Below are positions 3,350 through 21,345 of a DNA stretch of 26,789 nt, one piece after another. The stretch is from a virus. Taxonomy: Duplodnaviria > Heunggongvirae > Uroviricota > Caudoviricetes. Position 1 is the stretch's first letter, and each line of letters begins with the position of its first letter. The stretch is taken from positions 110,629 through 137,417 of the IMG/VR virus record IMGVR_UViG_3300003155_000137; one strand, given 5' to 3'. The notes below the pieces were generated by a model, which was given only the letters and a program-made list of their open reading frames with translations, did no database searches and was not told the origin of the DNA. The position numbers were made by a program, and so were the translations under genes.

Positions 3350-3461
3350 CCCCAATCGCTCCGGGAACCGCACATGGCGTCCCCATCATGGCTAGAATTG
3401 TTCATAGAATCGATTCGTGCGACGTGACGGCGTCGCTGCCCTGATGAGGAGGCCACTGCAT

Positions 3462-3788
3462 ATGGTGGACAAGTGCTATCAGAAGGTCATAGGGGGAAGC
3501 GCGATCAATCTGTACGTCACCGGTCGCCGCGCTTCGCTCTGCCGCATGGACATCAAGAGCGGCAGGGAGCGTGAGATAGACAGCTATTCCAACGTGTCCC
3601 CGATGGAGGCCGTGGCCATAGCGTCGGCGAGGTTCGGCCACATGGCGGAGGTCGACGTCTCCGGGGACAGCCCGTCGGTGAGGCGTCAGGCTAACCGTCA
3701 GGTGCGCTCGTCACGCAGGAGATTCAGCATGGAGGAGAGGCTCAGGCTCATCAACGAACGCCTCGACGAGGAGGATGAAGACCTGTGA
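3462..3788 (+). CDS. Hypothetical protein
   Basis: GAGGAGG RBS upstream of the ATG at 3462, preferred over 3417. Stop overlaps the GTG of the next gene. Confidence 0.7.
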   Translation: MVDKCYQKVIGGSAINLYVTGRRASLCRMDIKSGREREIDSYSNVSPMEAVAIASARFGHMAEVDVSGDSPSVRRQANRQVRSSRRRFSMEERLRLINERLDEEDEDL

Positions 3789-6673
3789 GCCAGATGATAT
3801 TCTACAAGTACCCTCTTGAGCAGGACGAGATATGGGATGGCTCTCCAACGGGAAGTACCTATGCATGGGGTGTGGCCAATCCAGACCTGTTCAATGACAT
3901 GCCGGATGACATAGAGATTTATCTTGATGATGATAGCGACCAGTGGGTCGCCGTATCCAGCGGTGCCGTCATCGACGGGCCGTACCCGTCGGTGGACGAG
4001 CTGATGGACTCATTGTCGACGATGTATGGTGCCGACTCGTACCAGGAATCCGAGGAGGGGTACGACGAGGCGCAGTCGGAGCTTGTCGTGGCGTCGTTCG
4101 ACGGAATCCTGATGACCACCAAGGACGTGTACACGGCAAGGGCCGTGTACGGCGTCGACGTGGACGTCAGGACGAGAACGGTCGCCGGAACCAGGGAGAA
4201 CGTCGGAAGATGGAGGAGAGCGATGGCCTACGACGTGAGAAGGACCGCGTCGGACGCCGGATGGGCCGAGATATCGGCCGGAATATGGGAGTATCAGGAC
4301 GGCAGGGAGCAGGCGTACATCATGGACGCCAACGACGGCCTCCTGCACCTGTACTATGAGGGACTCGACTACGGCCCCTACGAGGACGAGCTCATGGCGA
4401 TGGACGTGTTCGCGCAGCTCGTTCCCGGCATCGAGGACGCCATAGACGACGCCCTCGCCATCGCCCCGCCGCTCGGCCAGATGCTGTCCACATCCGATTC
4501 ATACGACACCGACAACGGGATGCTCGACGACGATTGGGAGGACGACTTCGCCGCCGACGAATTCGACCCGGACGACGACTGGGGATTCCACGACGTGTCC
4601 GACCTCGACGACGACTATGACGACGAGGATGACTCAAGAACCGCGTCCGTTCACAGGGCATCCGATGAGGATGAATTGGATGATGAATGGAGCTATATCT
4701 CTGACGACACCCCTGTAACGCATCTCCTTGATGATGATGCCATCATGTATGATGATGAGAGCAAGATGCCAGATTCAGATGGAATCAGAGTCATCAGAAT
4801 CGATGACCATACAATAAGAGTCGATGCCGATGATGATGATACATACAGGCAGTGGCTCAGCATGTACGGTGTCGACAATCCGGCCGATGTGGAGCTTTAT
4901 GATGAGGATGAGCGTCTCGGCTCCGCTCGAACTGCCGGGGCGTGGACCATCGATGCCGACGCCCCGCTGGACAATGACCAGAAGCGCATGCTCAACGACG
5001 CCGGGGTGGCGTTCTCTCAGGACGAGACCGACGACGGCAAGGCGCGCATCACCCTCACCGGAACGGACAAGGTGGTGGCCGACACGGCGGAGATGATCGG
5101 ACTGACCGACGACTTCGTGAACGATGCCGAGCCGCTCGACGGAGTGGAGCGCGACCCCGATGACGAAGGGTCGCCGGAGGACGAGGTGCGCGACGAGATA
5201 GACGACGCCGTTGAATCCGACGGCGACGACATGCACGCCATCTCCGACGACGACCAGAAGAAGATAGTCGACGGCGTCAAGGACCTCCTTGAGGGGTGGA
5301 AGGACGACGTGTCCGACAGAAGCGCCGCGAGGACGGCCGAGGCACCGGGTGCCGACGGAACCGACGTGTCCGACATGCCTGTCGACGAACATTGGCCCTA
5401 CACGTTCGAGAGCCGTAAGGTTGATGTGGACAACGGCAGATACGTGTCCACCCATGAGGCATCTTCTGACGATCATGATGAATCCACCGGAAAGGAATCC
5501 ATGAGAATGGCGGCTGACAGCTACTACGATGAGGACCTCGGCGGCTACCCGCTCGCCGTCGACGAGGATGGCGACGAGACCGAGTTCGACAACCGGAGGG
5601 AGTTCGAGGACGGCCCGCTCGATTCCTACTACTACACGATGTTCGACCGCTACGGAGACCCCCGGAAGGACTTCGTGGACGGAATCGACGAGGCGCTCGA
5701 CGGCGCGGCCACGCTCGACATCACCTATCCCGAGGTCGAATACGACAACATCTACCTCAGCACCTACGGCGACGTGTTCGACTGCTCGGAGTGCGACAAG
5801 CGCTTCAGGAGCATGGACGAGGCCATGAGGCATCTCCGCGAGGAGGCCCGCAAGGCGCTTGGCGATGCGGATTCCGGCAGGACCGCATCCACAAGGACGG
5901 CGCACCAGCTTCAGTCCTTCTCCATCAATACGGAAAACCACGGCCCCGTCACGGTCGACGTGGACATGGGGCAGCAGTACGACAACGGGAGCACGGCCTA
6001 CACGGTGTCCATCGACGGCATCCCGTCGGCGAAGGACGGGTTCGAGCTGTCCTACTACGGCTACCTGTCCAACGACACCGTGGACGACGACTACGAGGAG
6101 TGGTCGTGGAACGTGTCCGGCTCCGACGGCGAGACCATCTACGATGACGGCAGGGAGCTGTCCGGCGAGGCCGACTCGCGCGAGGGTGCCGAATCCGACA
6201 TGTACGACGCCATGTTCGACTACTTCAACCGCAACCTCGAACGCGACATCGATTCGTACCTCTCCGACAACGGCCTGACCGCATCCGCAAAGGGGACGGC
6301 CAAGCGGGCAGACACCGAATCCAAGTCGTGGACGTTCGACGTCGATGGCGTAGGTTCGGTATCGGCGACCATGTCCGACAGCGGATTCGGTGACACGAGA
6401 CAGTATTCCTTCACGTTCGGAGGCGCTGTTGACGACTACGGCAAGGACGGGTTCCGGCCCTTCGTCCTCGGGGAGATAGAGGACATGTCGTGGGACAACG
6501 ACGAGCCGACGTTCGAGTGGACGCTGTCCGACGAGGACCACAACGTCGACGAATCCGGCGACGCCGAATCGATGGACGACGCCGAACACGACATGATGGC
6601 GGCGTTCGAGTCCTTCATCGCGTCCGATGCATGCGCCGACATGATTCGCGGTTACGTGGACGCCAACAGGTAG
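3785..6673 (+). CDS. Very acidic modular polyprotein, putative internal head protein
   Basis: 962-aa ORF with phage-like codon bias. Asp/Glu-rich modules are separated by basic R-x-A linkers. Confidence 0.85.
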   Translation: MSQMIFYKYPLEQDEIWDGSPTGSTYAWGVANPDLFNDMPDDIEIYLDDDSDQWVAVSSGAVIDGPYPSVDELMDSLSTMYGADSYQESEEGYDEAQSELVVASFDGILMTTKDVYTARAVYGVDVDVRTRTVAGTRENVGRWRRAMAYDVRRTASDAGWAEISAGIWEYQDGREQAYIMDANDGLLHLYYEGLDYGPYEDELMAMDVFAQLVPGIEDAIDDALAIAPPLGQMLSTSDSYDTDNGMLDDDWEDDFAADEFDPDDDWGFHDVSDLDDDYDDEDDSRTASVHRASDEDELDDEWSYISDDTPVTHLLDDDAIMYDDESKMPDSDGIRVIRIDDHTIRVDADDDDTYRQWLSMYGVDNPADVELYDEDERLGSARTAGAWTIDADAPLDNDQKRMLNDAGVAFSQDETDDGKARITLTGTDKVVADTAEMIGLTDDFVNDAEPLDGVERDPDDEGSPEDEVRDEIDDAVESDGDDMHAISDDDQKKIVDGVKDLLEGWKDDVSDRSAARTAEAPGADGTDVSDMPVDEHWPYTFESRKVDVDNGRYVSTHEASSDDHDESTGKESMRMAADSYYDEDLGGYPLAVDEDGDETEFDNRREFEDGPLDSYYYTMFDRYGDPRKDFVDGIDEALDGAATLDITYPEVEYDNIYLSTYGDVFDCSECDKRFRSMDEAMRHLREEARKALGDADSGRTASTRTAHQLQSFSINTENHGPVTVDVDMGQQYDNGSTAYTVSIDGIPSAKDGFELSYYGYLSNDTVDDDYEEWSWNVSGSDGETIYDDGRELSGEADSREGAESDMYDAMFDYFNRNLERDIDSYLSDNGLTASAKGTAKRADTESKSWTFDVDGVGSVSATMSDSGFGDTRQYSFTFGGAVDDYGKDGFRPFVLGEIEDMSWDNDEPTFEWTLSDEDHNVDESGDAESMDDAEHDMMAAFESFIASDACADMIRGYVDANR

Positions 6674-6719: not shown

Positions 6720-7064
6720 ATGGTGAATCGCAGGATGATGATGATGGGGGGGGGCTCCTCCCGTAGCGTGAGAAGGGCCGGGAACGGCGACGACCTCCCA
6801 AGATGGTACGGGACTCCGGAGATAGGATACCGCTACTACAATGAGTGGGCCGACCCGGACCTCGTGTACAAGGGGCACGAGTTCAACTACTACGACATCG
6901 AAGGGGCCCTTTGGGACATGTATCTGGAGGATGGCGGAGACGAGGATGACGACGACGCCTTCGCTGCGTATGTACGCGAGAACGCTCCGGCATACATGGA
7001 CGACGTGATGGCGTTCGACTACTTCGCGCCGGGCTCCACGAGCTGGCACGACAGTTACCGGTGA
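6720..7064 (+). CDS. Small acidic protein with a basic N-terminal leader ending VRRA
   Basis: AC-rich leader and GAAAGGA RBS. MVNRRMMMMGGGSSRSVRRA is followed by an acidic/aromatic domain (WYG...EWADPDLVYKGHEFNYYDIE). Confidence 0.8.
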   Translation: MVNRRMMMMGGGSSRSVRRAGNGDDLPRWYGTPEIGYRYYNEWADPDLVYKGHEFNYYDIEGALWDMYLEDGGDEDDDDAFAAYVRENAPAYMDDVMAFDYFAPGSTSWHDSYR

Positions 7065-7328: not shown

Positions 7329-7367
7329 ATACCTAACACGGATATCTCCATCTGGAAGGGGTCACAC

Positions 7368-8939
7368 ATGCCTAACCCTATGGCGAACGGGCAGCAGGTG
7401 TTCTCGGGTGATCCCGTTTCGACCCCGCCGTTCGTCGACGACGTCGACGGGGACGGGAACACCGAAGTCGTGACGGACGCCGATATCGTGGAGCCCGATT
7501 CGGAGGATGGCGCTGCGGCATTGCAGCAGGACTTCAGCGGATCGCTCGGCGACAAGATCGACCTCCTCACACACAAGATAGAGGACCTCCTCACCCTTAA
7601 CAAGGTGGACAGACTCATCGACACCTTGACGGAGGCATTCCAGGACGCGCCGGAGCCCGAGTCTCCGGGCATGCCGCATGGCGGTGGATCGATGGGAGGG
7701 GAACCGACCCTCTCCGAGCCCGACATGTCGGACGTGCTCGACGACGCCGACGACGGCGGTCCCGAGGTTCCGGACGAGTCCGGTCCGGACGCCGAGGAGG
7801 ACGAACAGGAAACGGACACAGACAGGGAAGCAGCAGTCATGGCAAAGAATATGAGACGCGCCACCGACGAGGACGGAAAGGTCACAGACGCCCTCTCGGC
7901 CGATGAGGTGCTGAAGGACGTAACCGATCAGGGCATCGACTTCCAGCCCGCGCAGGACAAGAACGCGACCGAGCCGCAGTCGACCTCCGCCGAGGTCGGC
8001 GACAACTACGAAGGCTCGCAGAAGACATACGACGACGCCGAGGACGAGAGCCTGAAGCCGGTCTCCGCGACGGCGGCGCTCCGTCTGGCCGACGCCTACG
8101 TGACCGCAGGCGTGGCCTCCGAGGCCGACCGCTACACGCTGGCCGACGGATTCGCCAAGATGCCGCGCATCGCGGCCGAACACGAGCTCAAGGCCCTCTC
8201 GCTGGTCCGCAAGGCCAATGCGAAGAGGACCGAGGCGATGAAGAGGGCGGCTCTCCGCAGGGCCGCGCTGAACCGCAAGGCACGCCGCGCCGCACAGTTC
8301 CGCAAGGCCGGGGACACCCAGGTCTACGACCTTGAGGGCCAGCAGACCGGCACCATCACCCCGGCCGAAGACGGCACCTATTCGTTCGACGTGGACGGCC
8401 AGACCGGAGACGGCTACGCCACCGAGTCCGAGGCCCTCGACGCCGCGAAGGAGCAGACCGGCAACGACGATCTGGTGACATCCACCGCGGTCGCCGCAGC
8501 CCGTCGTCGTTCGGCGGCACGCAAGGCGGCGGTGAACCGCAGGAAGGCCAAGGCCGCCCCGAGGAAGAAGGCGACGGCCGCCACCGCCAAGAGGACCGCA
8601 GGACGCGGCAAGAGCTGCGATGACGCCGACCGCAGGAAGGAGCGCCGCGAGGAGGCACGCAAGGCCGCACGCCGCGCCGCCCTGAGGAGGGCCGCACGTC
8701 GCCGCGCCGCCGAGCGCAAGGCCGGAGCCGCCACCAAGAGCGCCCCGAAGCGCCTGTCCGCAGCCAACCGCGCGCGCATCGCAGCGAGGGTCGCCGCCGC
8801 CCGCAAGGCCAATGGCGATCCGAAGGCCACGGCACGTCGCGCCGCTCTGAACGCGGCACGCACCAAGGCCGCCCGTCGCACACCGAACATCACCAGAACC
8901 GCAGCGTCGAAGGCCGACGGCCCGCTCGCGTTGCTCTGA
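7368..8939 (+). CDS. Capsid scaffolding / prohead core protein
   Basis: Immediately upstream of the decoration and MCP genes. Acidic N-terminal half and an Arg/Ala/Lys-rich helical C-terminal half. Confidence 0.7.
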   Translation: MPNPMANGQQVFSGDPVSTPPFVDDVDGDGNTEVVTDADIVEPDSEDGAAALQQDFSGSLGDKIDLLTHKIEDLLTLNKVDRLIDTLTEAFQDAPEPESPGMPHGGGSMGGEPTLSEPDMSDVLDDADDGGPEVPDESGPDAEEDEQETDTDREAAVMAKNMRRATDEDGKVTDALSADEVLKDVTDQGIDFQPAQDKNATEPQSTSAEVGDNYEGSQKTYDDAEDESLKPVSATAALRLADAYVTAGVASEADRYTLADGFAKMPRIAAEHELKALSLVRKANAKRTEAMKRAALRRAALNRKARRAAQFRKAGDTQVYDLEGQQTGTITPAEDGTYSFDVDGQTGDGYATESEALDAAKEQTGNDDLVTSTAVAAARRRSAARKAAVNRRKAKAAPRKKATAATAKRTAGRGKSCDDADRRKERREEARKAARRAALRRAARRRAAERKAGAATKSAPKRLSAANRARIAARVAAARKANGDPKATARRAALNAARTKAARRTPNITRTAASKADGPLALL

Positions 8940-8967
8940 CATCCACTAGAGACAAGGACATACCATC

Positions 8968-9462
8968 ATGATGTATACAACCAACGCCCATGATGCGTTC
9001 CTCGGCCGCACCGCGAACATCGAGTACGACAACGCCATCCAGTACGCCGGCGTGCTCGTGCGCGACGAGGGCGACACCAAGGACATCCTGCCGGGCATGG
9101 TCGTCAAGCACATCGGCGACAAGCAGATGAAGCTGTATGACGGCACCGGCACCCCGTTCGGCCTCGCCGCGATCTTCGTGGCACCGAACTACGGCAGGGG
9201 CGGAATCAACCAGCTCGGCCAGAACGGCGAGTTCACCGCCATCGTCGGCAACAACACCACAACCGTCCGCATCAACGTGGACGCCCTGGATCAGGCATCC
9301 TCGTTCGCAGTGAAGGCCGACGGCACCAAGGTCCCGGTCTACGCGAACGCCGATGGTCGCATCTCCATGACCGGCACCGCAGTGGTCGGTCATCTGCTGG
9401 AGGTTGCCCCGGACAACAAGTCCATCGTCATCCAGCTCGCCGACCCCGCAGTCGCGGCCTGA
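8968..9462 (+). CDS. Capsid decoration / cement protein
   Basis: 164-aa beta-rich protein between scaffold and MCP (ILPGMVV...YDGTGTPFGL). Confidence 0.6.
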   Translation: MMYTTNAHDAFLGRTANIEYDNAIQYAGVLVRDEGDTKDILPGMVVKHIGDKQMKLYDGTGTPFGLAAIFVAPNYGRGGINQLGQNGEFTAIVGNNTTTVRINVDALDQASSFAVKADGTKVPVYANADGRISMTGTAVVGHLLEVAPDNKSIVIQLADPAVAA

Positions 9463-9492: not shown

Positions 9493-10443
9493 ATGACACA
9501 GAAGTTCATGCTCGCCAAGGACTACGCTCAGGCGGCTGATAGGAACATCAAGGCCCGTGGCGGCAGGAAGGTCACCGCCGCCGAGAAGACCAAGAGGATG
9601 GCGTCCATCCTGTCCAAGGGCGGCACCGTCAAGCTGGGCGAGGCGATGGTCGGCCCCATCTCCATCCGCATCAACTACGAGGGCATCGCCCGTCAGGCAC
9701 TGGTCGAGGACCTCGTCCCGCAGGGCGAGATCAGGCAGTACCCGGTGCTGTCCGACCTGCCGACCGCGTACTCCCTCAACTCCAACGACGGACAGGTCCG
9801 CATCTCCCATGTGGAGGGCAAGACCATCGTCCCGAAGTACGGACGCATCGCGGCGGAGTGGGAGGTGGATCGTTCCGACCTGGAGCTGCTCCACGCCAAC
9901 ATCGTCGAGTACGCCGACAACATGACCGTGCAGCAGATCATGAAGGAGGAGGACAACCTCCTGTACAACGGCTACGACCTGATGATCCAGGACTGGCAGG
10001 ACCTCCATCCGGGCCAGACCGACAACAACATCACGATGGTCGGCACCACCCTGACGCTGGACACCCTGATCGACGCCCAGGCGTTCATCGCGTCCCAGCA
10101 GAACGAGGCGAAGCTGCTCATCGCCAATCCGGCAGACATGTACGACCTGTACAGGTGGGATCTGCTCACCGTCGGCGTCGCCTTCAAGGACAACTACTTC
10201 GCAGGCTACAAGCAGACGACGTTCGGCGACTGGACCCTGCTCAAGTCCGTCACCATGCCGCGTGGCGTGTTCTACGTCACCGGCGCTCCGAACACCGTCG
10301 GCATCTTCTCGACCCGCTACGGCCTTGAGGCGACGGATGACGTGACGGCGAACTCGAAGTTCAAGATTCGCAAGATCTTCAACGAGTTGTGCTCGCTCGT
10401 GCTCGTGAATCAGTTGGCTGTGGCGAAGATCACCAAGGAGTGA
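9493..10443 (+). CDS. Major capsid protein (Bxz1-like type)
   Basis: LGEAMVGPISIRINYEGIARQALVED, NIVEYADNMTVQQIMKEED and DLYRWD...GVAFKD resemble, from memory, the MCP of cluster C mycobacteriophages. Strong codon bias, GAAAGGA RBS and a downstream terminator. Confidence 0.85.
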   Translation: MTQKFMLAKDYAQAADRNIKARGGRKVTAAEKTKRMASILSKGGTVKLGEAMVGPISIRINYEGIARQALVEDLVPQGEIRQYPVLSDLPTAYSLNSNDGQVRISHVEGKTIVPKYGRIAAEWEVDRSDLELLHANIVEYADNMTVQQIMKEEDNLLYNGYDLMIQDWQDLHPGQTDNNITMVGTTLTLDTLIDAQAFIASQQNEAKLLIANPADMYDLYRWDLLTVGVAFKDNYFAGYKQTTFGDWTLLKSVTMPRGVFYVTGAPNTVGIFSTRYGLEATDDVTANSKFKIRKIFNELCSLVLVNQLAVAKITKE

Positions 10444-10504: not shown

Positions 10505-12223
10505 CTATCCGTGCAACTCATACACCCTCGTTCCGCAGTCATAGAACCGGCTGTAGCCCTTGGAGCGCATCGTGGCGTCCTCATCCTTCATCTGCGTCGA
10601 ATACCTAGACAGCATGTCGAACGGGTTGTTGTGAATCCACCAGTAGCTCGGCACGGTGTCCCTCGTATGGGCGAACCCGATTCTCTCATATGACGATCCG
10701 GTGAACTTCGCCCGATTGCAGTAGGATATGACGTCGGTGATGCCGAACCGATCCATAGAATGCTTCAGCAACCGGGACATTCCTCCTACGACCTCAGTAC
10801 CCATCCGGCAACAGTATCTCAGCATCTCCATCCCCTCGAAGCCGGAGAACCTGGGTTTGCCGAACGTCATGAGGGCCACTAGCTCCCCGTCATGGGCAAG
10901 GCCGAGGCGATAGCGCGATCCGATCGCCCCCTGTATGTGGTTCTCACGAAAGAACCCCATAGACGTGTGCGAATCGACCTCGACGACATCGCACCTGCGC
11001 GCCCCGATTCTTTCCGACATCCCGAGCGCGGTCGACAGGAGCGACTTCACGACCTTCTTGTTGTTCGTCCACTCCCACTCAAAGACATGGACGAGCCTGA
11101 TGCCGAGGGCCTCGCACGCCTCGGTCTTTCCGAGATGGTATCCGGAGTCCTTGAACTCGTCGGTGTGCCAGTACGAACCATCGAACTCAATCGCAAGATT
11201 CCTTGACGGAATGTACACATCAAGCTCCTGCGGCTTGATGATGTCCCTCACGGTCTGTCTCGCATCGGGAGCGATGGAGCGGACGAATTGGAACAGCTCC
11301 GCCTCCTCGTTGGACGGTGAGTGGGGCGATGTACGGTGGATTCGGTCCGACATCCCATACCTGATGACGGCCTTCCCGACTCTCTGACTCCATGTGCCGA
11401 GTCGCTCCTGAAGCTCGTACATGCTCGGATCGTGGTCGAACGAATCGAGGATGGACCATGCGAACGATTCGTCGTCGCAGAACCGGCACGCATCCTCGGT
11501 CCACCCCTTGCGCTTCGTGGCCTTCAGTTTCTCCGTCGACCTAGCTTTGGCCATCTCGCTCTGTCTCGTCCTCAGCTCGGGGTGTTCCCTGAAACGCCTC
11601 TTCTGCGACTCGCTCAGCCTCCGCTTCGACTCCTCGGACATGTGGGAGCCCTTGCGTCCGCTCATCCTGGAGTATTCGCCCATCTTCAGCCTCAGCGTGG
11701 GGTCGTTCTCGAATCGGAGCTTCTGGGCCTCGGACATCCTCGTCTTGGCCTCGTCGGACATCACCTTGCCCTTGTTCGACTCCGATATGCGCCGCTTCGT
11801 CTCATCCGACACCGCCCTTGTGCGGTTCGACCTGATGATGGCCTGACGATGGCTCTCGCTTATCGGCCCCCTGTCAGTCCTCGCCTTGGCGCTCTCCGAC
11901 ATCCTCCTTTTCGTCTCCTCAGAAAACGTCCGTCTGACGTATCCATCATCGTGCGTCTTGGTGTGGGTCTTGTACCCAGCCACCGAACTGCACTCATACC
12001 CGCACACGGGGCATGTGAGCGATTCAGGTATGCCCTTGGCCTTCAGTTTGCAGTCGTCGCATACGGTCTGCCTGTTGCTGTGCGTGTGGAACATCGCACC
12101 GCACTCCGCACATGTCTTGTCGATGCCGTTGACATTCAGGTCGCAGTAACCGCACATCCCGTTCGGTCGTATCGACCGAGCGCCGCGCGACTTTCCGCAT
12201 CTGATGCATCTCACCTTTTCCAT
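10505..12223 (-). CDS. Hef-like homing endonuclease: Zn ribbons, C2H2 finger, NUMOD3 repeats, Vsr/DUF559 nuclease, GNAT-like domain
   Basis: Repeats SEETKRRMSES / SDETKRRISES / SEESKRRLSES. Nuclease motif ELDVYIPSRNLAIEFDGSYWH. C-terminal ENHIQG...LVALMTFGKPRF...VVGGMSRLL. Confidence 0.8.
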   Translation of the reverse strand: MEKVRCIRCGKSRGARSIRPNGMCGYCDLNVNGIDKTCAECGAMFHTHSNRQTVCDDCKLKAKGIPESLTCPVCGYECSSVAGYKTHTKTHDDGYVRRTFSEETKRRMSESAKARTDRGPISESHRQAIIRSNRTRAVSDETKRRISESNKGKVMSDEAKTRMSEAQKLRFENDPTLRLKMGEYSRMSGRKGSHMSEESKRRLSESQKRRFREHPELRTRQSEMAKARSTEKLKATKRKGWTEDACRFCDDESFAWSILDSFDHDPSMYELQERLGTWSQRVGKAVIRYGMSDRIHRTSPHSPSNEEAELFQFVRSIAPDARQTVRDIIKPQELDVYIPSRNLAIEFDGSYWHTDEFKDSGYHLGKTEACEALGIRLVHVFEWEWTNNKKVVKSLLSTALGMSERIGARRCDVVEVDSHTSMGFFRENHIQGAIGSRYRLGLAHDGELVALMTFGKPRFSGFEGMEMLRYCCRMGTEVVGGMSRLLKHSMDRFGITDVISYCNRAKFTGSSYERIGFAHTRDTVPSYWWIHNNPFDMLSRYSTQMKDEDATMRSKGYSRFYDCGTRVYELHG

Positions 12224-12229
12224 ACGGCC

Positions 12230-12235
12230 ATCTTA
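12230..12235 (-). promoter_or_regulatory. Putative -10 (TAAGAT) giving a leaderless transcript
   Basis: The hexamer lies 6 nt before the ATG at 12223, and no RBS is present. Confidence 0.45.
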
Positions 12236-12307
12236 CATCCAAGAGAGGACAGATGTTTGATGGGTGTGTCTCGCTTGTAGTGTCATGGCTGGCAGACGTT
12301 TCTGCGA

Positions 12308-14143
12308 TCACATGTGCAGCTCATACACCCTCGTCCCACAGTCGTAGACACGATGGAACCCGCGACCGCGCATCACCGCATCCTCGTTCCTCATCTGCGC
12401 CCTGTACCGTGCGAGATGTTCCTGACCGTTCGCCCATGTGTAGCTCGGTGCAGTGTCACGGACATGGGAGAATCCCAGCCGCTCATACGAACGTCCGGTG
12501 AACTTCGACCGGTTGCAGTACGCCATGACATCGCTGATTCCATAGTCGCTCATGGCATGGGACAAGAGCCTCGACATGCCACCGACGACCTCGGTTCCCA
12601 TCCGACAGCAGTAGCGGAGCATCTCCATGCCGTCGAACGCTCCGAACCTTGGTCTTCCGAATGTCATCAGCGACACAAGTCCGCCGTCGCACTCAAGACC
12701 GAGCCTTATGGTGGAGCCGACACCGCCCTGTATGTGGTTCTCATCGAGGAATGTCATGGCGGTGTGGGAATCGACCTCGACCACCCGACACCTTCTGGCG
12801 AACACTCTATCATCAAGTCCCAGCGCCGAGCGAATCATGGACTCGCAGACATTTCTTCTCTCAAGCCATTCCCACTCGAATATGTGGATGAGCCTGATTC
12901 CCTTTTTCTCGCATCCGATGGTCTTGTCGAGCTGCCGGTTCACGTCGGGATTCACCTCGTCGGAATGCCAGTAGGCACCGTCGAACTCAATGGCAAGGCT
13001 TTTCTCCGGCACGTAGATGTCCAATTCCCTGCCGTCCAGCACAGTGGTGTCGGCGTATCCGTCGAATCCCAGCGAACGCACGTAATCCCGGACTTCGTTC
13101 TCCATGCCGGAGGTCTTTGCGTGCGTGTTCACCATACCGTTCAGTCCGTACCGGTTGACGTTCTTGACTATGGTCTGGCACATCGGTATCCCCAGCGCAT
13201 CGGCAAGCTCGATGTATGTGGGGCGATGGTCGAACGATTCGATGAGTGAACGGAGCCTACTCTCGTCCTCCAATACCGATGCGGCGTCCTCACCGACCGC
13301 CCTCACACGCCTGTTGTGGGCGATGAGGTCCTTGGTGAACTGCATCTGGAACGCGGACTCAACGCCGTACCGCTCCACCATGTTCCTCTTCCGGGTCTCC
13401 CTGACGAGTTCGCTCCCCCAAGGGGTCTCGGCACCGTACCGCTCCATGTTGGTCGCATGGGTCTTCTCGGCTATCTCGGGGTTGGCGAGGCCGCGTTTTC
13501 CATCCCACCGTTCATCGAAGGCTCTTCTGACCTTCTCCTTTATCTCCGGCACACGGCTGACATGGGCGTCCCCGTACCGCTCGACGTTCGTCCTGTAGCG
13601 CTTCTCCGTCAGCTCCTTGGAGGCGAAGCCGATGCCTCCATAGCGCTCGATCGTTGTCCTCTCGCGCTTCGGCTTGGCGATGCAGTAGGAGCATATGCAG
13701 TTCCTCATCCTCTCGGGCCAGCGCATCTTGTGGCATGCGGGGCACTCGACACGTTCCACCCCCTTATGCGAGTCGGACATGGTGCATCGACGGCACTGTT
13801 CAAGCTCGTGGTCGTCGGTGTAGGTCCTGCCGCATCTCCTGCACACGTATTGGCGGCGCTCCCCCTTCGGCTCCTTCGCCTTGGTACGCAACGAACGGCA
13901 GATGTTGCACAAGCCATCCTTGAACGTCCTGCGCCTGCGCATCCTGTGGCAGCCATCGCACTCAATCAGCTCGTCCTTCCGCGCCCTGCACTCGTCGCAC
14001 TCCTTGCGTCTGGATGACCCACGGAAGACATTGCCGCATGTCTGACACACCATCTCCGGCTTCTCACGACGGCACCATTGGCACACGCCGCTCCCATCGA
14101 TGGATGATTCCCTGCGATCCCTGTTGCACTTGACGCATATCAT
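12308..14143 (-). CDS. Second Hef-like endonuclease: Zn ribbons, ERYG repeats, Vsr/DUF559 nuclease, GNAT-like domain
   Basis: Many CxxC pairs and xxERYG repeats. ELDIYVPEKSLAIEFDGAYWH. The C-terminus is highly similar to 10505..12223. Start placed at 14143 because a promoter overlaps the 14161 ATG. Confidence 0.8.
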   Translation of the reverse strand: MICVKCNRDRRESSIDGSGVCQWCRREKPEMVCQTCGNVFRGSSRRKECDECRARKDELIECDGCHRMRRRRTFKDGLCNICRSLRTKAKEPKGERRQYVCRRCGRTYTDDHELEQCRRCTMSDSHKGVERVECPACHKMRWPERMRNCICSYCIAKPKRERTTIERYGGIGFASKELTEKRYRTNVERYGDAHVSRVPEIKEKVRRAFDERWDGKRGLANPEIAEKTHATNMERYGAETPWGSELVRETRKRNMVERYGVESAFQMQFTKDLIAHNRRVRAVGEDAASVLEDESRLRSLIESFDHRPTYIELADALGIPMCQTIVKNVNRYGLNGMVNTHAKTSGMENEVRDYVRSLGFDGYADTTVLDGRELDIYVPEKSLAIEFDGAYWHSDEVNPDVNRQLDKTIGCEKKGIRLIHIFEWEWLERRNVCESMIRSALGLDDRVFARRCRVVEVDSHTAMTFLDENHIQGGVGSTIRLGLECDGGLVSLMTFGRPRFGAFDGMEMLRYCCRMGTEVVGGMSRLLSHAMSDYGISDVMAYCNRSKFTGRSYERLGFSHVRDTAPSYTWANGQEHLARYRAQMRNEDAVMRGRGFHRVYDCGTRVYELHM

Positions 14144-14149
14144 GGAACC

Positions 14150-14178
14150 ATTATAACGCATGTCGCATCAATATACAA
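14150..14178 (-). promoter_or_regulatory. Sigma70/SigA-type promoter TTGTAT-N17-TATAAT, leaderless
   Basis: Perfect -10 with a 17-nt spacer. The ATG begins 6 nt after the -10. Confidence 0.7.
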
Positions 14179-18385: not shown

Positions 18386-19015
18386 ATGCCCAGAAGAACC
18401 GCAGACGAGTTCAGCGAAGGCGGCATCCCGTTCGACTACCTGAGCGACGAAGCGAAAGAGAATGCCATCGAAAATGTCAGCAACGACGATGGCCTGTATG
18501 ACGTGGCGTCAATGACCATCGACGAGGATCTCGACTCGTTGAAGAGCGTGCTCGAATCGATCGGCGTGGAACTCAGGGACTACAACGTCGGATACCCCGG
18601 CACGTTCGCCACCATCCGCATCGACGACCGCACGGAGGACGACCTCATGTACCCCGACGCCACGACCAACCATCTCGCCGACATCCAGCACGCCGAGGAC
18701 GACGGGTATTGGATTGGCGTCGGGGTCAAGGAGGACTGGGACAAGCGCGTCCCCGAGCTCCAGGCGATGGTGGACGCCATCAACGCCAAACTCGATGGCT
18801 CCGACCCTGACGCTGAATGGCCATACTACGATGGCTTTGATGGCGAGACCCAGGAGCTGTACAACGCCTATGATGAGGCGGCGGGTGAGTGCGCCGACAG
18901 GGCCATCAGGGACATCAGCGACAACTACGACTACCTCACGACCAACGACGAGGCAATCAGGGAGTTCATCGAAGGCAGCGACTTCCTCTTCGACGAGGAC
19001 GGCAGCCTGATGTGA
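18386..19015 (+). CDS. Acidic protein with an MPRRTA leader; resembles a family seen in ICE/plasmid/phage early regions
   Basis: FDYLSDEAKENAIE and YDYLTTNDEAIREFIEGSDFLFDEDG recall the family often auto-annotated as 'antitoxin of toxin-antitoxin stability system' (recalled, not searched). Upstream TATAAT at 18306-18311. Confidence 0.75.
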   Translation: MPRRTADEFSEGGIPFDYLSDEAKENAIENVSNDDGLYDVASMTIDEDLDSLKSVLESIGVELRDYNVGYPGTFATIRIDDRTEDDLMYPDATTNHLADIQHAEDDGYWIGVGVKEDWDKRVPELQAMVDAINAKLDGSDPDAEWPYYDGFDGETQELYNAYDEAAGECADRAIRDISDNYDYLTTNDEAIREFIEGSDFLFDEDGSLM

Positions 19016-19149: not shown

Positions 19150-20352
19150 CTACCCCCGATTGTCGGTCGGTTCTTTCACGTTATGAGTTGTTTGGCTTAT
19201 TCGCAATGCTTCGTCCCGGATGTTCAATGCGGCATTGACATCCCGGTCGTGCCATGCCCCGCAGTGTTCGCAGACCCATTCGCGCTCCGAGAGTCTCAGT
19301 CCCTCGTATTTGCGCCCGCAGTCGTGGCAGAGTCTGGAACTTGGGTAGAACCTGTCCACTTGGACGAACGTACGACCATACCATTCCGCCTTGTATGCGA
19401 GCTTGTCCATGAACCCTCGCCACCCGTCTCGTAGGATGGCATGGTTCATCACGCGCTTGCGTGACTGTCCGTTGCGCATCGGCTTGCCGTCCGCGTCGAG
19501 CTTCCTTCTCGCGCGTCGAGTCATGTTCCGCACCATCAGGGTCTCCATGCCGATGAATTGGTTCTCTTCTATCAGCCTGCGGGACGTCTGATGCTGGAAG
19601 TCCTCACGGTAGTGGCGCAGTCTCGCGTACGCCTTGGCGACGGCTTGTCTCTGCTTGCGGTAGTTGCTTGAGCCTTTCCTCCTTCGTGAGAGCTTCCGCT
19701 GCTCGCGTCTGACGTTCACCTCCAGTCGGCGCAGACGGTCGGGGTAGTCGATTTTCTCCCCGGTGGAGAGCGCGATGAAGTCCTTGACACCCACGTCGAT
19801 GCCGACCTGTCCTTCGACGGGTGGCTTGGGTTGGATGTCCACGTCGAACAGGAGCACGAGATAGTATGTCCGGTTCTCCCGTTTCACCGTCCAACTGGAT
19901 AGCGATTCGATCGGGTAGCGTAGCTTATCGCGTCTGCGAATGCGCACCGAGCCGAGCTTCCTGGACAGGGGATACCGGTTGCCTTCCATGCGGCGCATCG
20001 GCGCAGTGTTGCGGAACGACTGGACGTTGTCATGCCGGGATGCGAACCGGGGACGGTTGCGGGCGTACTCCGACTTGCGGAAGTACGCCGCCCGCGCTTT
20101 ACGGAAGTCCATGATGGCGTTGCTCAATGCGTTCGACGGAATCGGACTGTCTCTCAGCCATTCGTTCGCCCGCTTCATGTCCGTCACGTTCGGATAAACG
20201 GGTTTCGGATTGGTCTCCTTGTTGAACGTGTTGAACGCCTCGACCTGCTGGTTGTATGCGAAACGTCTATCCCCGAAGCATCGTTCCAACAGTGCCGCCT
20301 GCGTCTTCGAGGGCTTGAAGGGAATGCGTTGTGCGACCTTGCGAACCGTCAT
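19150..20352 (-). CDS. tnpB: RNA-guided endonuclease TnpB
   Basis: N-terminal HTH (KPSKTQAALLERCFG). RuvC residues present: GIDVG, GMETL, DRDVNAALNI. Zinc finger CHDCG/CEHCG. ATGA overlap with the tnpA stop. Confidence 0.92.
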   Translation of the reverse strand: MTVRKVAQRIPFKPSKTQAALLERCFGDRRFAYNQQVEAFNTFNKETNPKPVYPNVTDMKRANEWLRDSPIPSNALSNAIMDFRKARAAYFRKSEYARNRPRFASRHDNVQSFRNTAPMRRMEGNRYPLSRKLGSVRIRRRDKLRYPIESLSSWTVKRENRTYYLVLLFDVDIQPKPPVEGQVGIDVGVKDFIALSTGEKIDYPDRLRRLEVNVRREQRKLSRRRKGSSNYRKQRQAVAKAYARLRHYREDFQHQTSRRLIEENQFIGMETLMVRNMTRRARRKLDADGKPMRNGQSRKRVMNHAILRDGWRGFMDKLAYKAEWYGRTFVQVDRFYPSSRLCHDCGRKYEGLRLSEREWVCEHCGAWHDRDVNAALNIRDEALRISQTTHNVKEPTDNRG

Positions 20353-20468
20353 TCCGCGTCGCGCTCCTTTAACCGTTGTCCGTCGATGTACTTGGCGACC
20401 GCATCCTCCTTCGTCGTGCCGATGCTTTCCACGAAGTAGCTGGGAGACCAAAGGCACAAGGTCACGGC
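20349..20468 (-). pseudogene. tnpA: 3' remnant of IS200-type Y1 transposase
   Basis: LWSPSYFVESIGTTKEDAVAKYIDGQ is the typical TnpA C-terminus including the catalytic Tyr helix. An in-frame stop lies just upstream, and the HUH region is missing. Confidence 0.85.
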
Positions 20469-20507
20469 TCAGTGCCGTAGACCGATTCGTATTGTCGAAC
20501 CGGCCGG

Positions 20508-20592
20508 CGGATGGTGCAGGATTCGGACCTGCGGAACCTCTCGGTTCACCTGTTTTCAAGACAGGCGCGTTAGACCGCTCCGCCAACCATCC
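20508..20592 (-). tRNA. trnS: tRNA-Ser(UGA)
   Basis: Acceptor GGAUGGU/ACCAUCC, anticodon arm CCUGU-CUUGAAA-ACAGG, long variable arm GAACC-GAGA-GGUUC. CCA not encoded. Confidence 0.92.
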
Positions 20593-20869
20593 ATGCCTGA
20601 CTTTCTCTCCGGCCGCTCAGGCTACGACCCGCACGTACACCGGCTTCACATGATCCACCGGCGCGTGGAGAGTGGCGGGAGAGCGGATTGGGTTTTACCG
20701 CCAGCGTCGAGGACAACGGTGCCTGTCGTATGCACCCTCTGGACGTGCCATCCGTTCAGGCCGCTAAGCCAAAGTCCGCTAAGACCCGGATGCGCCTTAC
20801 CCCCACCGTTCCGACGGGGTATTCGGCCACTCCCATGACGATGGACGGGTCGTCACCCATCCACCATCG
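20593..20869 (-). ncRNA. Candidate structured ncRNA between tRNA-Arg(UCU) and tRNA-Ser
   Basis: Nested 9-bp helices and twin UUAGCG-loop hairpins. Wobble pairs work only on the minus strand. No credible ORF. Confidence 0.55.
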
Positions 20870-20942
20870 TGCCCCGAGCCGGACTCGAACCGGCAACACG
20901 CGGATTAGAAGTCCGCTGCTCTATCCGTTGAGCTACCGAGGC
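20870..20942 (-). tRNA. trnR: tRNA-Arg(UCU)
   Basis: Cloverleaf with GCGGA-CUUCUAA-UCCGC anticodon arm and T arm GCCGG-UUCGAGU-CCGGC. Confidence 0.93.
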
Positions 20943-20945
20943 AGT

Positions 20946-21109
20946 GACGGCTCCGCACCGGGATTCGCACCCGGACGGGCCTTCGATCCGTTTGCAGCAG
21001 GCGCCCATCGTGTGCATCCACGACGTGTCTCCTGTGTCAGCCCCTTCGGATGCGGTAGTGCTATAGTATGCCGCATCCTGGAATGACTTTTCCACCATAC
21101 GGAGCCGTC
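20946..21109 (-). ncRNA. Candidate tRNA-like ncRNA between the two tRNA-Arg genes
   Basis: 12-bp closing stem next to a CCGGG-UGCGAAU-CCCGG T-arm, plus internal hairpins. Confidence 0.55.
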
Positions 21110-21110
21110 G

Positions 21111-21183
21111 TGCCCACGAGAGGAATCGGACCTCCGACACCCGCTTTAGGAGAGCGGTGCTCTATCCACTGAGCTACGTGGGC
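21111..21183 (-). tRNA. trnR: tRNA-Arg(CCU)
   Basis: Cloverleaf with CCGCU-CUCCUAA-AGCGG anticodon arm. Confidence 0.92.
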
Positions 21184-21271
21184 AATGGGTGGTGGATTGA
21201 TGTCGAACCGCATCATCGAGTGTGGGCAAACGACCTGCTTGACGCGGACGAAGGCATCGCACCATCACCAG

Positions 21272-21345
21272 TGGGCTCGGCTGGGCTTGAACCAGCGACC
21301 TGCATTTTATAAGAATGCTGCTCTAACCTACTGAGCTACGAGCCC
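21272..21345 (-). tRNA. trnI: tRNA-Ile(UAU)
   Basis: GGGCUCG/CGAGCCC acceptor, A73, anticodon arm GCAUU-CUUAUAA-AAUGC. Confidence 0.9.

Follow-up and report, generated by a model that had tools for sequence, protein, structure and literature searches.

The prohead protease gp21 of phage T4 cuts after Glu at L/I-x-E, the T4 core protein gp22 is extremely acidic, the cleavage motif of phiKZ and SPN3US ends in Glu, and herpesvirus assemblin (MEROPS S21) cuts its scaffold at (V/L/I)-x-A|S. Head-protein processing at one short motif is textbook knowledge for T4- and phiKZ-like phages (PMC9958956, PMC10052503). In the prohead core of T4, the internal proteins IPI-III, Alt, gp67 and gp68 are processed by the gp21 protease (PMC9958956), and a capsid targeting sequence has been described (Mullaney & Black 1996, as cited in PMC9958956). 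In phiKZ and SPN3US (gp175 and gp245, respectively), propeptides are removed at a single short motif from a large number of head proteins, among them the portal. Nearly all of these cuts take off N-terminal propeptides of 20-254 residues, and certain propeptides are cleaved more than once (PMC10052503, PMC7411985). Removal of the portal propeptide is documented for both SPN3US and phiKZ (PMC10052503). Chains of many unrelated domains are known from the polyvalent proteins of phages and conjugative elements, which have been proposed to be packaged and delivered and are sometimes processed (Iyer et al. 2017, PMC5512222). Here we describe a gene, P0001, in a 26,789-nt stretch of phage DNA (hereafter the window), which covers positions 110,629 to 137,417 of the record IMGVR_UViG_3300003155_000137 and forms the final 26.8 kb of this single 137,417-bp virus record, rated complete by CheckV. 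The gene (window 3785-6673, plus strand) encodes a very acidic protein, in which short basic linkers separate about eight modules. These linkers are likely to be protease sites of some kind. On balance, we favor the reading from sequence and structure prediction that P0001 is a head polyprotein, which a head protease encoded by the phage itself would cleave behind the Ala of [R/K/H]-[T/M]-A|[S/A/G].

P0001 consists of 962 residues counted from GTG 3785, with a GC content at third codon positions (GC3) of 0.81. Relatives have ATG where the window has GTG 3785, and the database copy of the protein (P0007) starts at ATG 3794, 9 nt (3 codons) further on, giving 959 residues. The protein has an isoelectric point of 4.05, contains 18.7% Asp and 26.6% Asp plus Glu (D+E), and begins with a folded conserved module rather than a leader. 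Every module is net negative, with charges from -8 to -39. The initial annotation had described acidic modules cut apart by nearly isolated basic patches, and all seven linkers that it listed were confirmed at their coordinates (4238, 4634, 4922, 5318, 5501, 5876 and 6275). The acidity of the modules was borne out as well, whereas the isolation of the patches was not, as the majority of the 67 Lys and Arg residues lie outside the linkers.

The modules and linkers follow one another on the plus strand. Module 1 (3785-4237, residues 1-151) is a conserved N-terminal core with a predicted alpha/beta fold (predicted local distance difference test, pLDDT, of about 70-80 over residues 21-88) and is kept in the distant homologues P0066-P0071. 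It is followed by linker 1, RRTAS (4238-4252), a segment of pLDDT<50 in which R150, T151 and A152 are invariant or nearly so. Module 2 (4253-4633, residues 157-283; D+E 0.31) is a highly conserved small fold with a conserved Asp/aromatic tail, including a long invariant run from W165 to G194. The double site SRTASVHRAS of linker 2 (4634-4663) is a point of cassette insertion or deletion in relatives. Module 3 (4664-4921) is a variable cassette with foreign codon usage, of which residues 313-369 are missing from most homologues. Linker 3, SARTAG (4922-4939), has [RK]TA[GR]VWKL at the equivalent place in distant homologues. Module 4 (4940-5317) belongs to the conserved core and is composed of a small alpha/beta fold (residues 384-437), an acidic spacer and a long helix; it is invariant from T380 to P447 and kept in P0066-P0071. 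Linker 4, RSAARTAE (5318-5341), is placed by the sequence and the homologue alignments, and the short module 5a behind it (5342-5500) is predicted to be disordered in the AlphaFold model. Linker 5, MRMAA (5501-5515), is replaced by VRTAA in several relatives. Module 5b (5516-5875) is variable, with a finger-like CxxC...H stretch, and an unrelated module stands in its place in P0050 and P0063. The second double site, GRTASTRTAH, forms linker 6 (5876-5905; peptide DSGRTASTRTAHQL), which supplied the segment docked to the protease below. Module 6 (5906-6274), predicted to be a beta-sheet with a long helix (pLDDT about 70), is a weak paralogue of module 7. Linker 7, LTASAKGTAKRAD (6275-6313), again falls in a segment of pLDDT<50, and module 7 (6314-6670), a predicted beta-sheet with helices (pLDDT 70-89), is missing or replaced in relatives.

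The repetition of the linkers far exceeds the expectation from composition. The tripeptide RTA is present in 6 copies in the polyprotein, whereas 20,000 shuffles contained 0.22 on average and never as many as 6. The looser motif R-x-A gave a weaker signal, with 10 observed against 4.0 expected, a number that 81 of the 20,000 shuffles reached. In a set of 142 open reading frames (ORFs) of the genome (42.6 k residues; capsid, scaffold-like and 114-aa proteins excluded), 7 of the 23 [RKH][TM]A[SGEHAY] sites sit in P0001. The six RTA copies are encoded by differing codons (AGG/AGA/CGA, ACC/ACT/ACG and GCG/GCC/GCA), indicating that the repeat is conserved as a peptide and not as DNA. Among the modules, a weak relationship was detected only between 6 and 7 (32% identity over 65 residues), and none of the other ORFs of the genome has a match to any module; therefore, the linkers are not remnants of tandem duplication.

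A word-indexed search yielded 59 close homologues of P0001, all metagenomic, with local-alignment identities down to about 51%, and a HMMER profile search over 1.8 billion cluster representatives returned nine clusters only, all of them relatives. All 59 homologues retain the linkers, and each gain, loss or replacement of a module takes place at a tag. A further five, more distant metagenomic homologues (P0066, P0067 and P0069-P0071) have only modules 1, 2 and 4 with the following helix in common, and show KTASTKTAD, KTASVKKAH, ITASTITAY or RTARVWKL preceding unrelated C-terminal modules. Over 155 distinct sites, the linker consensus is A-S-x-[RHK]-[TM]-A-[SAG]. The nucleotides encoding module 3 (4646-4936) have a GC3 of about 0.5 and a GAT:GAC ratio of 20:4, compared with a GC3 of 0.86-0.92 in the neighboring modules, which marks module 3 as a foreign cassette bounded by two tags. 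In addition, a stand-alone protein of 121 residues, P0072, matches module 7. Linkers that separate unrelated, swappable modules are the typical signature of polyprotein processing sites.

Structure prediction by AlphaFold with the family alignment revealed no integrated fold (predicted template modelling score 0.24) but folded islands between stretches of pLDDT<50, and every linker lies inside such a stretch, which is predicted to be disordered. Several modules are modeled as compact, beta-rich units of 100-130 residues, and the most acidic stretches are predicted to be disordered. Alignments and model together describe a protein in which modules 1, 2 and 4 form a conserved core at the N-terminal end and exchangeable acidic cassettes come after it, with predicted flexible linkers between all of these units. 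Database searches gave little on the nature of the modules. No Pfam family matched P0001 at E<=0.01, the PHROGs returned a single marginal match (E 0.0075), tblastn against 50,697 phage records found no match, and an ESM Atlas feature search with module 1 gave no usable match. With the whole 959-residue low-confidence model as query, Foldseek found nothing in the PDB at E<=0.001, and the matches from VIA-align wide were all generic, namely small alpha/beta folds resembling KH or ferredoxin, whose Z values did not exceed 7.1.

A candidate protease is encoded 13.4 kb upstream of the window. P0073, an ORF of 196 residues (genome 97177-97767; L006:2177-2767), was discovered via its homology to the N-terminus of gp100 of the Bixzunavirus EasyJones (32% identity, E 2e-14), and the family phrog_18299, 'head maturation protease', matches both P0073 (E 3e-7) and gp100 (E 1.4e-19). 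His61, within VFVDH, and Ser123, within VSMG, are invariant among 21 homologues. The AlphaFold (AF2) model of P0073 has a pLDDT of 90, and its top Foldseek matches in the PDB are T4 gp21 (5jbl, probability 1.0, TM 0.53-0.64), followed by many herpesvirus assemblins. Immediately past the catalytic Ser there is a Cys-rich stretch, GCTCRTYCSICGGEFDDVNPCECGACP, in which five Cys residues are invariant in the 21 homologues; it looks like a zinc ribbon inserted into the gp21/assemblin fold. No Pfam family matches P0073. The Pfam prohead-protease families S78, S77, ClpP, S49 and Mu-like have no match anywhere in the genome, where PF03420 (Peptidase_S77) gives nothing at E<=1, and the Bixzunavirus records have no annotated prohead protease. 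A P0073 homologue and the distant polyprotein homologue P0069 are found on one contig, and the capsid gene of another relative is followed, 1.6 kb downstream, by that of the protease. Judged by homology and predicted fold, P0073 is the phage's own Ser/His head-maturation protease, with the fold of T4 gp21 and herpes assemblin.

When P0073 was modeled in complex with polyprotein residues 681-716, which include linker 6, the score was 0.66, compared to 0.03 for the best of three controls. Of 80 solved complexes, 58 attain that mark, whereas only 2 of 110 mismatched pairs do. The pLDDT of the partner was at least 41 and the contact agreement at least 52%. In the model, the substrate stretch S-T-R-T-A-H-Q is placed along the P0073 strand 122-130, which bears Ser123. 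The docked substrate residues, 698-709 in the 959-residue copy P0007, correspond to 701-712 in the 962-residue numbering. The predicted complex supports the binding of the linker at the putative active site of the protease.

The same tag is found in other head-region proteins. Homologues of the portal protein, down to about 50% identity, possess a variable basic leader followed by the conserved sequence [RK]-T-A-S-[TS]-x-[DN]-I-[AV]-[IV]-R-P, and the shortest of them start directly past the [RK]-T-A-S tag. By analogy with the portals of SPN3US and phiKZ, this is the pattern expected of a removable propeptide. The portal gene itself (genome 37546-39096; L005:1546-3096) is located about 80 kb from the capsid gene and encodes 516 residues, compared with 867 in Bixzunavirus; the gene after it (genome 39098-40342, 414 residues), which matches phrog_2791 of unknown function, may be the counterpart of the C-terminal half of that longer protein. 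A scan of IMG/VR for loci related to the portal gave nothing. In EasyJones, gp100 is a 'hypothetical protein' of 1369 residues encoded just upstream of the capsid gene (L001:7219-11328), with gp99 at L001:3170-7183. It shows NNKTAG immediately past its protease domain and SRTAAVRTAAD further on. Across the whole first 62 kb of EasyJones, 17 [RK]TA[GASDEH] sites were observed against 5.4 expected. Six large proteins encoded around the genes for portal and capsid account for 15 of the 17, and the [RK]-T-A-[GAS] tags accumulate in gp85, gp91, gp92, the portal, gp99 and gp100.

The polyprotein gene is flanked by tail-fibre-like genes and a scaffold-like gene and lies two genes upstream of the cement and capsid genes; the neighbors described here are all on the plus strand. 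A small upstream gene (3417-3788) is translationally coupled to it, its stop overlapping the polyprotein start (GTGA), and adjoins the polyprotein gene in distant relatives as well. In those relatives, its product carries KRTAG or KTASRTFKTAR preceding a conserved, invariant-looking C-terminus, RRKFSMEER.RLIDED..DL. Downstream of the polyprotein gene, a 114-aa acidic protein (6720-7064) has the basic leader MVNRR...SVRRA|GNGDD. The scaffold-like protein of 523 residues (7368-8939) has an acidic N-terminal half and a basic C-terminal half with a conserved [KR]RA[TA]D, and its gene is syntenic in L008, L010 and L011. Its C-terminal half is mainly composed of Ala/Arg/Lys runs, AARRAALRRAARRRAAERK, the charge of which is opposite to that of the polyprotein encoded upstream. 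This protein matches the C-terminus of Bixzunavirus gp100 weakly (E 0.028 over 45 residues), a sequence hint of a scaffold link. An equal-length mirror ORF of the scaffold-like gene is present on the minus strand at 7362-8942. The head cement/decoration protein (8968-9462; PF23968, E 1.4e-13) and the major capsid protein (9493-10443; phrog_2522, E 6e-62) follow, the latter with a conserved [RK]-[ML]-A-x at residues 35-38 (nt 9595-9606). In close relatives, an IS200/IS605 pair (Y1 transposase and TnpB; L002:13961-15922 and L003:11864-13825) separates the polyprotein block from the scaffold-like gene, and these relatives have an additional gene for a Cys-rich acidic protein of 183 residues behind the polyprotein. 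Farther away in the window, a stand-alone acidic protein of 209 residues (18386-19015; D+E 0.27) begins with MPRRTA|DEF and matches phrog_10310 and phrog_5162, both of unknown function. An N-terminal motif, F-D-x-L-S-D-E-A-K, is common to this protein and an acidic protein encoded at genome 76872-77552. A scan of IMG/VR with the 209-aa protein gave one weak locus, which was not used.

Based on these findings, we propose a mechanism for the maturation of the polyprotein. P0073 would bind the linkers and cut after Ala, and cleavage would free about eight pieces of 6-15 kDa inside the prohead. P0073 and the tag would likewise trim the portal leader and the short leaders of the stand-alone acidic proteins. 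The conserved N-terminal core probably serves incorporation or assembly, while the variable C-terminal cassettes behave like accessory cargo. Retention of the pieces in the head is favored by the folded beta-rich modules and the cassette turnover, whereas the extreme negative charge beside DNA and the basic tail of the scaffold-like neighbor favor a core-filling role in which the pieces are expelled. We infer the cleavage, the exact scissile bond, the head location and the fate of the pieces from these indirect lines.

The initial annotation had proposed a polyprotein cut at [R/K]-x-A linkers by a prohead protease, and this is partly supported, by several lines that are independent although indirect. 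The linkers are conserved while the modules swap, they are predicted to be disordered, and a protease of gp21/assemblin fold is encoded by the phage. In addition, the tag recurs where the portal leader and the gp100 protease domain end, and a linker is docked at the predicted active site. Two of the checks suggested with that proposal came out in its favor, as the linkers are kept in the 59 close and the five distant homologues, and AlphaFold predicted separate small folds with the linkers in disorder instead of one integrated fold. The proteases that it named as comparators, T4 gp21 and phiKZ gp175, cut after Glu, so that the proposed rule differs from theirs; the linkers do not fit L/I-x-E, and their conserved core is [RKH]-[TM]-A-[SAG]. 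Several points weigh against the mechanism proposed above. As the five Pfam prohead-protease families searched had no match in the genome, the protease call depends on the PHROG match and the fold. The docking result may partly reflect the model's memory of assemblin-peptide complexes, and the pLDDT of the docked peptide itself is low. The capsid N-arm tag [RK]-[ML]-A and the scaffold-like tag [KR]-R-A are looser and could be just structural. The gene is placed between tail-fibre-like and scaffold-like genes, and the head location is deduced from the protease link only. Moreover, strongly acidic folded domains packed beside DNA would be unusual, so that the pieces may leave the head.

The last point leads to a different fate for the same products. 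The polyprotein might be a sacrificial acidic core or scaffold accessory, cut at its linkers, which fills or organises the prohead and whose fragments are expelled during DNA packaging, with no injected cargo. We regard this as possible but unlikely. In all relatives, the polyprotein gene is immediately followed by those for the scaffold-like, cement and capsid proteins, its product is as extremely acidic as known core proteins such as T4 gp22, and the double sites would free tiny spacer peptides. The Ala/Arg-rich basic tail of the neighboring 523-aa protein fits as well, and its very basic C-terminal half could perhaps pair with the polyprotein by charge. However, several modules are predicted to be compact beta-rich folds of 100-130 residues and not a helical scaffold, and the exchange of cassettes among relatives, one of them with foreign codon usage, fits accessory cargo better. 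Compared with a scaffolding protein, which is mostly helical, elongated and encoded beside the capsid gene, the position of P0001 is compatible, but its model consists of beta-rich globular islands and long disordered acidic stretches. By its predicted structure, P0001 is not scaffold-like, and the 523-aa protein fits that role better.

An improbable alternative is that P0001 remains uncut, as a beads-on-string virion or accessory protein in which the tags act as docking or addressing peptides, e.g. as repeats to which the scaffold, portal or protease binds, or as sites of host modification such as Ser/Thr phosphorylation. The conserved Thr and the frequent Ser of the tag would be modifiable, and in the stand-alone MPRRTA protein the tag is six residues from the N-terminus, where cutting would remove little. 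The portal homologues argue for cleavage instead, as the tag ends a dispensable variable leader and some of them begin directly past it. In Bixzunavirus gp100, the tag also comes immediately behind the protease domain, the complex model places it next to the catalytic Ser, and its position between unrelated swappable modules typifies processing sites and not docking peptides. A broader form of the cleavage reading is equally doubtful in our view: an undescribed branch of the gp21/assemblin fold, common to gut actinobacterial phages and cluster C mycobacteriophages, would cut [R/K]-T-A|S/A/G, and the tag would serve as a plug-in address and release signal for exchangeable acidic cassettes, loaded into the capsid from one gene and injected together with the DNA as counter-defence factors. 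Least probable of all is that the acidic modules are DNA mimics or anti-defence cargo, injected with the DNA to block restriction or other defences, as only their charge (D+E 0.27), the rapid cassette turnover and the other small hyperacidic genes of the genome suggest it, whereas P0001 shows no similarity to ArdA, Ocr or anti-defence families in Pfam and PHROGs, the fold searches with the whole low-confidence model gave only generic matches (Z <=7.1), and the most acidic stretches are predicted to be disordered and not rigid DNA-like surfaces.

The phage that encodes this putative head polyprotein is, to judge from its genes, an uncultured gut myovirus of about 137 kb, related to Bixzunavirus through its capsid and protease genes. 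Its capsid protein shares 37% identity with the major capsid proteins of cluster C mycobacteriophages (genus Bixzunavirus), a relative was found in a record labelled gut metagenome, and an endolysin with LysM is encoded in the genome. A haloarchaeal virus was suggested first by the acidity of the polyprotein and by matches to DUF7310, DUF7487 and FlaC_arch. It was rejected because the rest of the proteome is non-acidic, the nearest kin of the capsid and protease are from actinobacteriophages, the relative comes from a gut metagenome and the endolysin carries LysM; the three archaeal matches are coiled-coil noise. With D+E typically 0.12-0.16 in the other proteins of the genome, acidity is a trait of the polyprotein and a few other small genes and not of the organism; further small hyperacidic genes are indeed present.

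Other features of the window concern mobile elements and tRNAs. Immediately behind the capsid gene, two large nuclease-type genes occupy 10505-14161 on the minus strand, one with NUMOD3 and the other with DUF7487 and a Vsr/MTES_1575-like endonuclease domain; relatives have a DUF559 or DUF7487 gene at this position, and these genes look like homing endonuclease insertions. A solo TnpB is located at 19150-20586. A tRNA cluster at 20506-21345 on the minus strand comprises Ser(UGA), Arg(UCU), Arg(CCU) and Ile(UAU), and the sole match at nucleotide level in the phage collection was obtained with the tRNA-Arg(CCU) gene, which matched the attP core of actinophage RP3.

If the tag is a cut site, it would define how a lineage of prohead proteases recognises its substrates, a lineage overlooked by current annotation, in which gp100 is listed as a 'hypothetical protein'. 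The mature head proteins would then be predictable from sequence across a whole group of gut and mycobacterial phages, and the design of one gene for many capsid proteins, with modules swapped at protease sites, would extend beyond T4-like and jumbo phages. The Ala rule would also tie phage and herpesvirus maturation proteases closer together than the Glu rule of T4 and phiKZ does. The hypothesis is directly testable, as mycobacteriophages that are in culture, such as Bxz1 and Catera, have this tag and protease too. A literature search on Bixzunavirus and Bxz1 returned no report of a protease or a cleavage rule.

The locus can be compared with several known systems. T4 shares the protease fold, the use of one short motif for several head proteins and the basic leaders on stand-alone small proteins. 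However, the cargo of T4 is encoded by separate genes with one leader each, whereas here about eight unrelated modules are joined in one ORF with internal sites, and P0073 differs from gp21 in having no Pfam S77 match and a Cys-rich insert past the catalytic Ser. In phiKZ and SPN3US, as here, a single short motif serves many head proteins including the portal, but no string of folded, swappable modules has been described for those phages. The polyvalent proteins resemble P0001 in being single phage polypeptides with many unrelated domains, encoded in the vicinity of virion genes. They differ in carrying recognisable enzymatic or anti-restriction domains, which P0001 lacks, and often their own zincin peptidase, whereas the processing of P0001 would be carried out by the prohead protease at a repeated tag. 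Herpesvirus assemblin is the next-best fold match of P0073 after gp21 and has in common with it the Ser/His active site and, for the proposed scissile bond, Ala at P1 and Ser at P1'; P3 is hydrophobic there and would be basic here, and its substrate is a protease-scaffold fusion and not a multi-module protein. By this analogy, the proposed Ala rule would be nearer to the A|S rule of herpes assemblin than to the Glu rule of T4 and phiKZ. Bixzunavirus shares the capsid and protease lineage and has, in gp99 and gp100, large proteins with [RK]-T-A-[GAS] tags beside the head genes. In that genus the protease is fused to a long tail in gp100, whereas here the protease, the scaffold-like protein and the polyprotein are separate genes; gp99 and gp100 are not acidic, and the Bixzunavirus proteins have no sequence similarity to P0001. 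What appears to be new here, on the evidence of sequences and models, is the combination of a Bixzunavirus-related actinobacterial lineage with an unannotated protease branch bearing a Cys-rich insert and with a tag of the Ala type.

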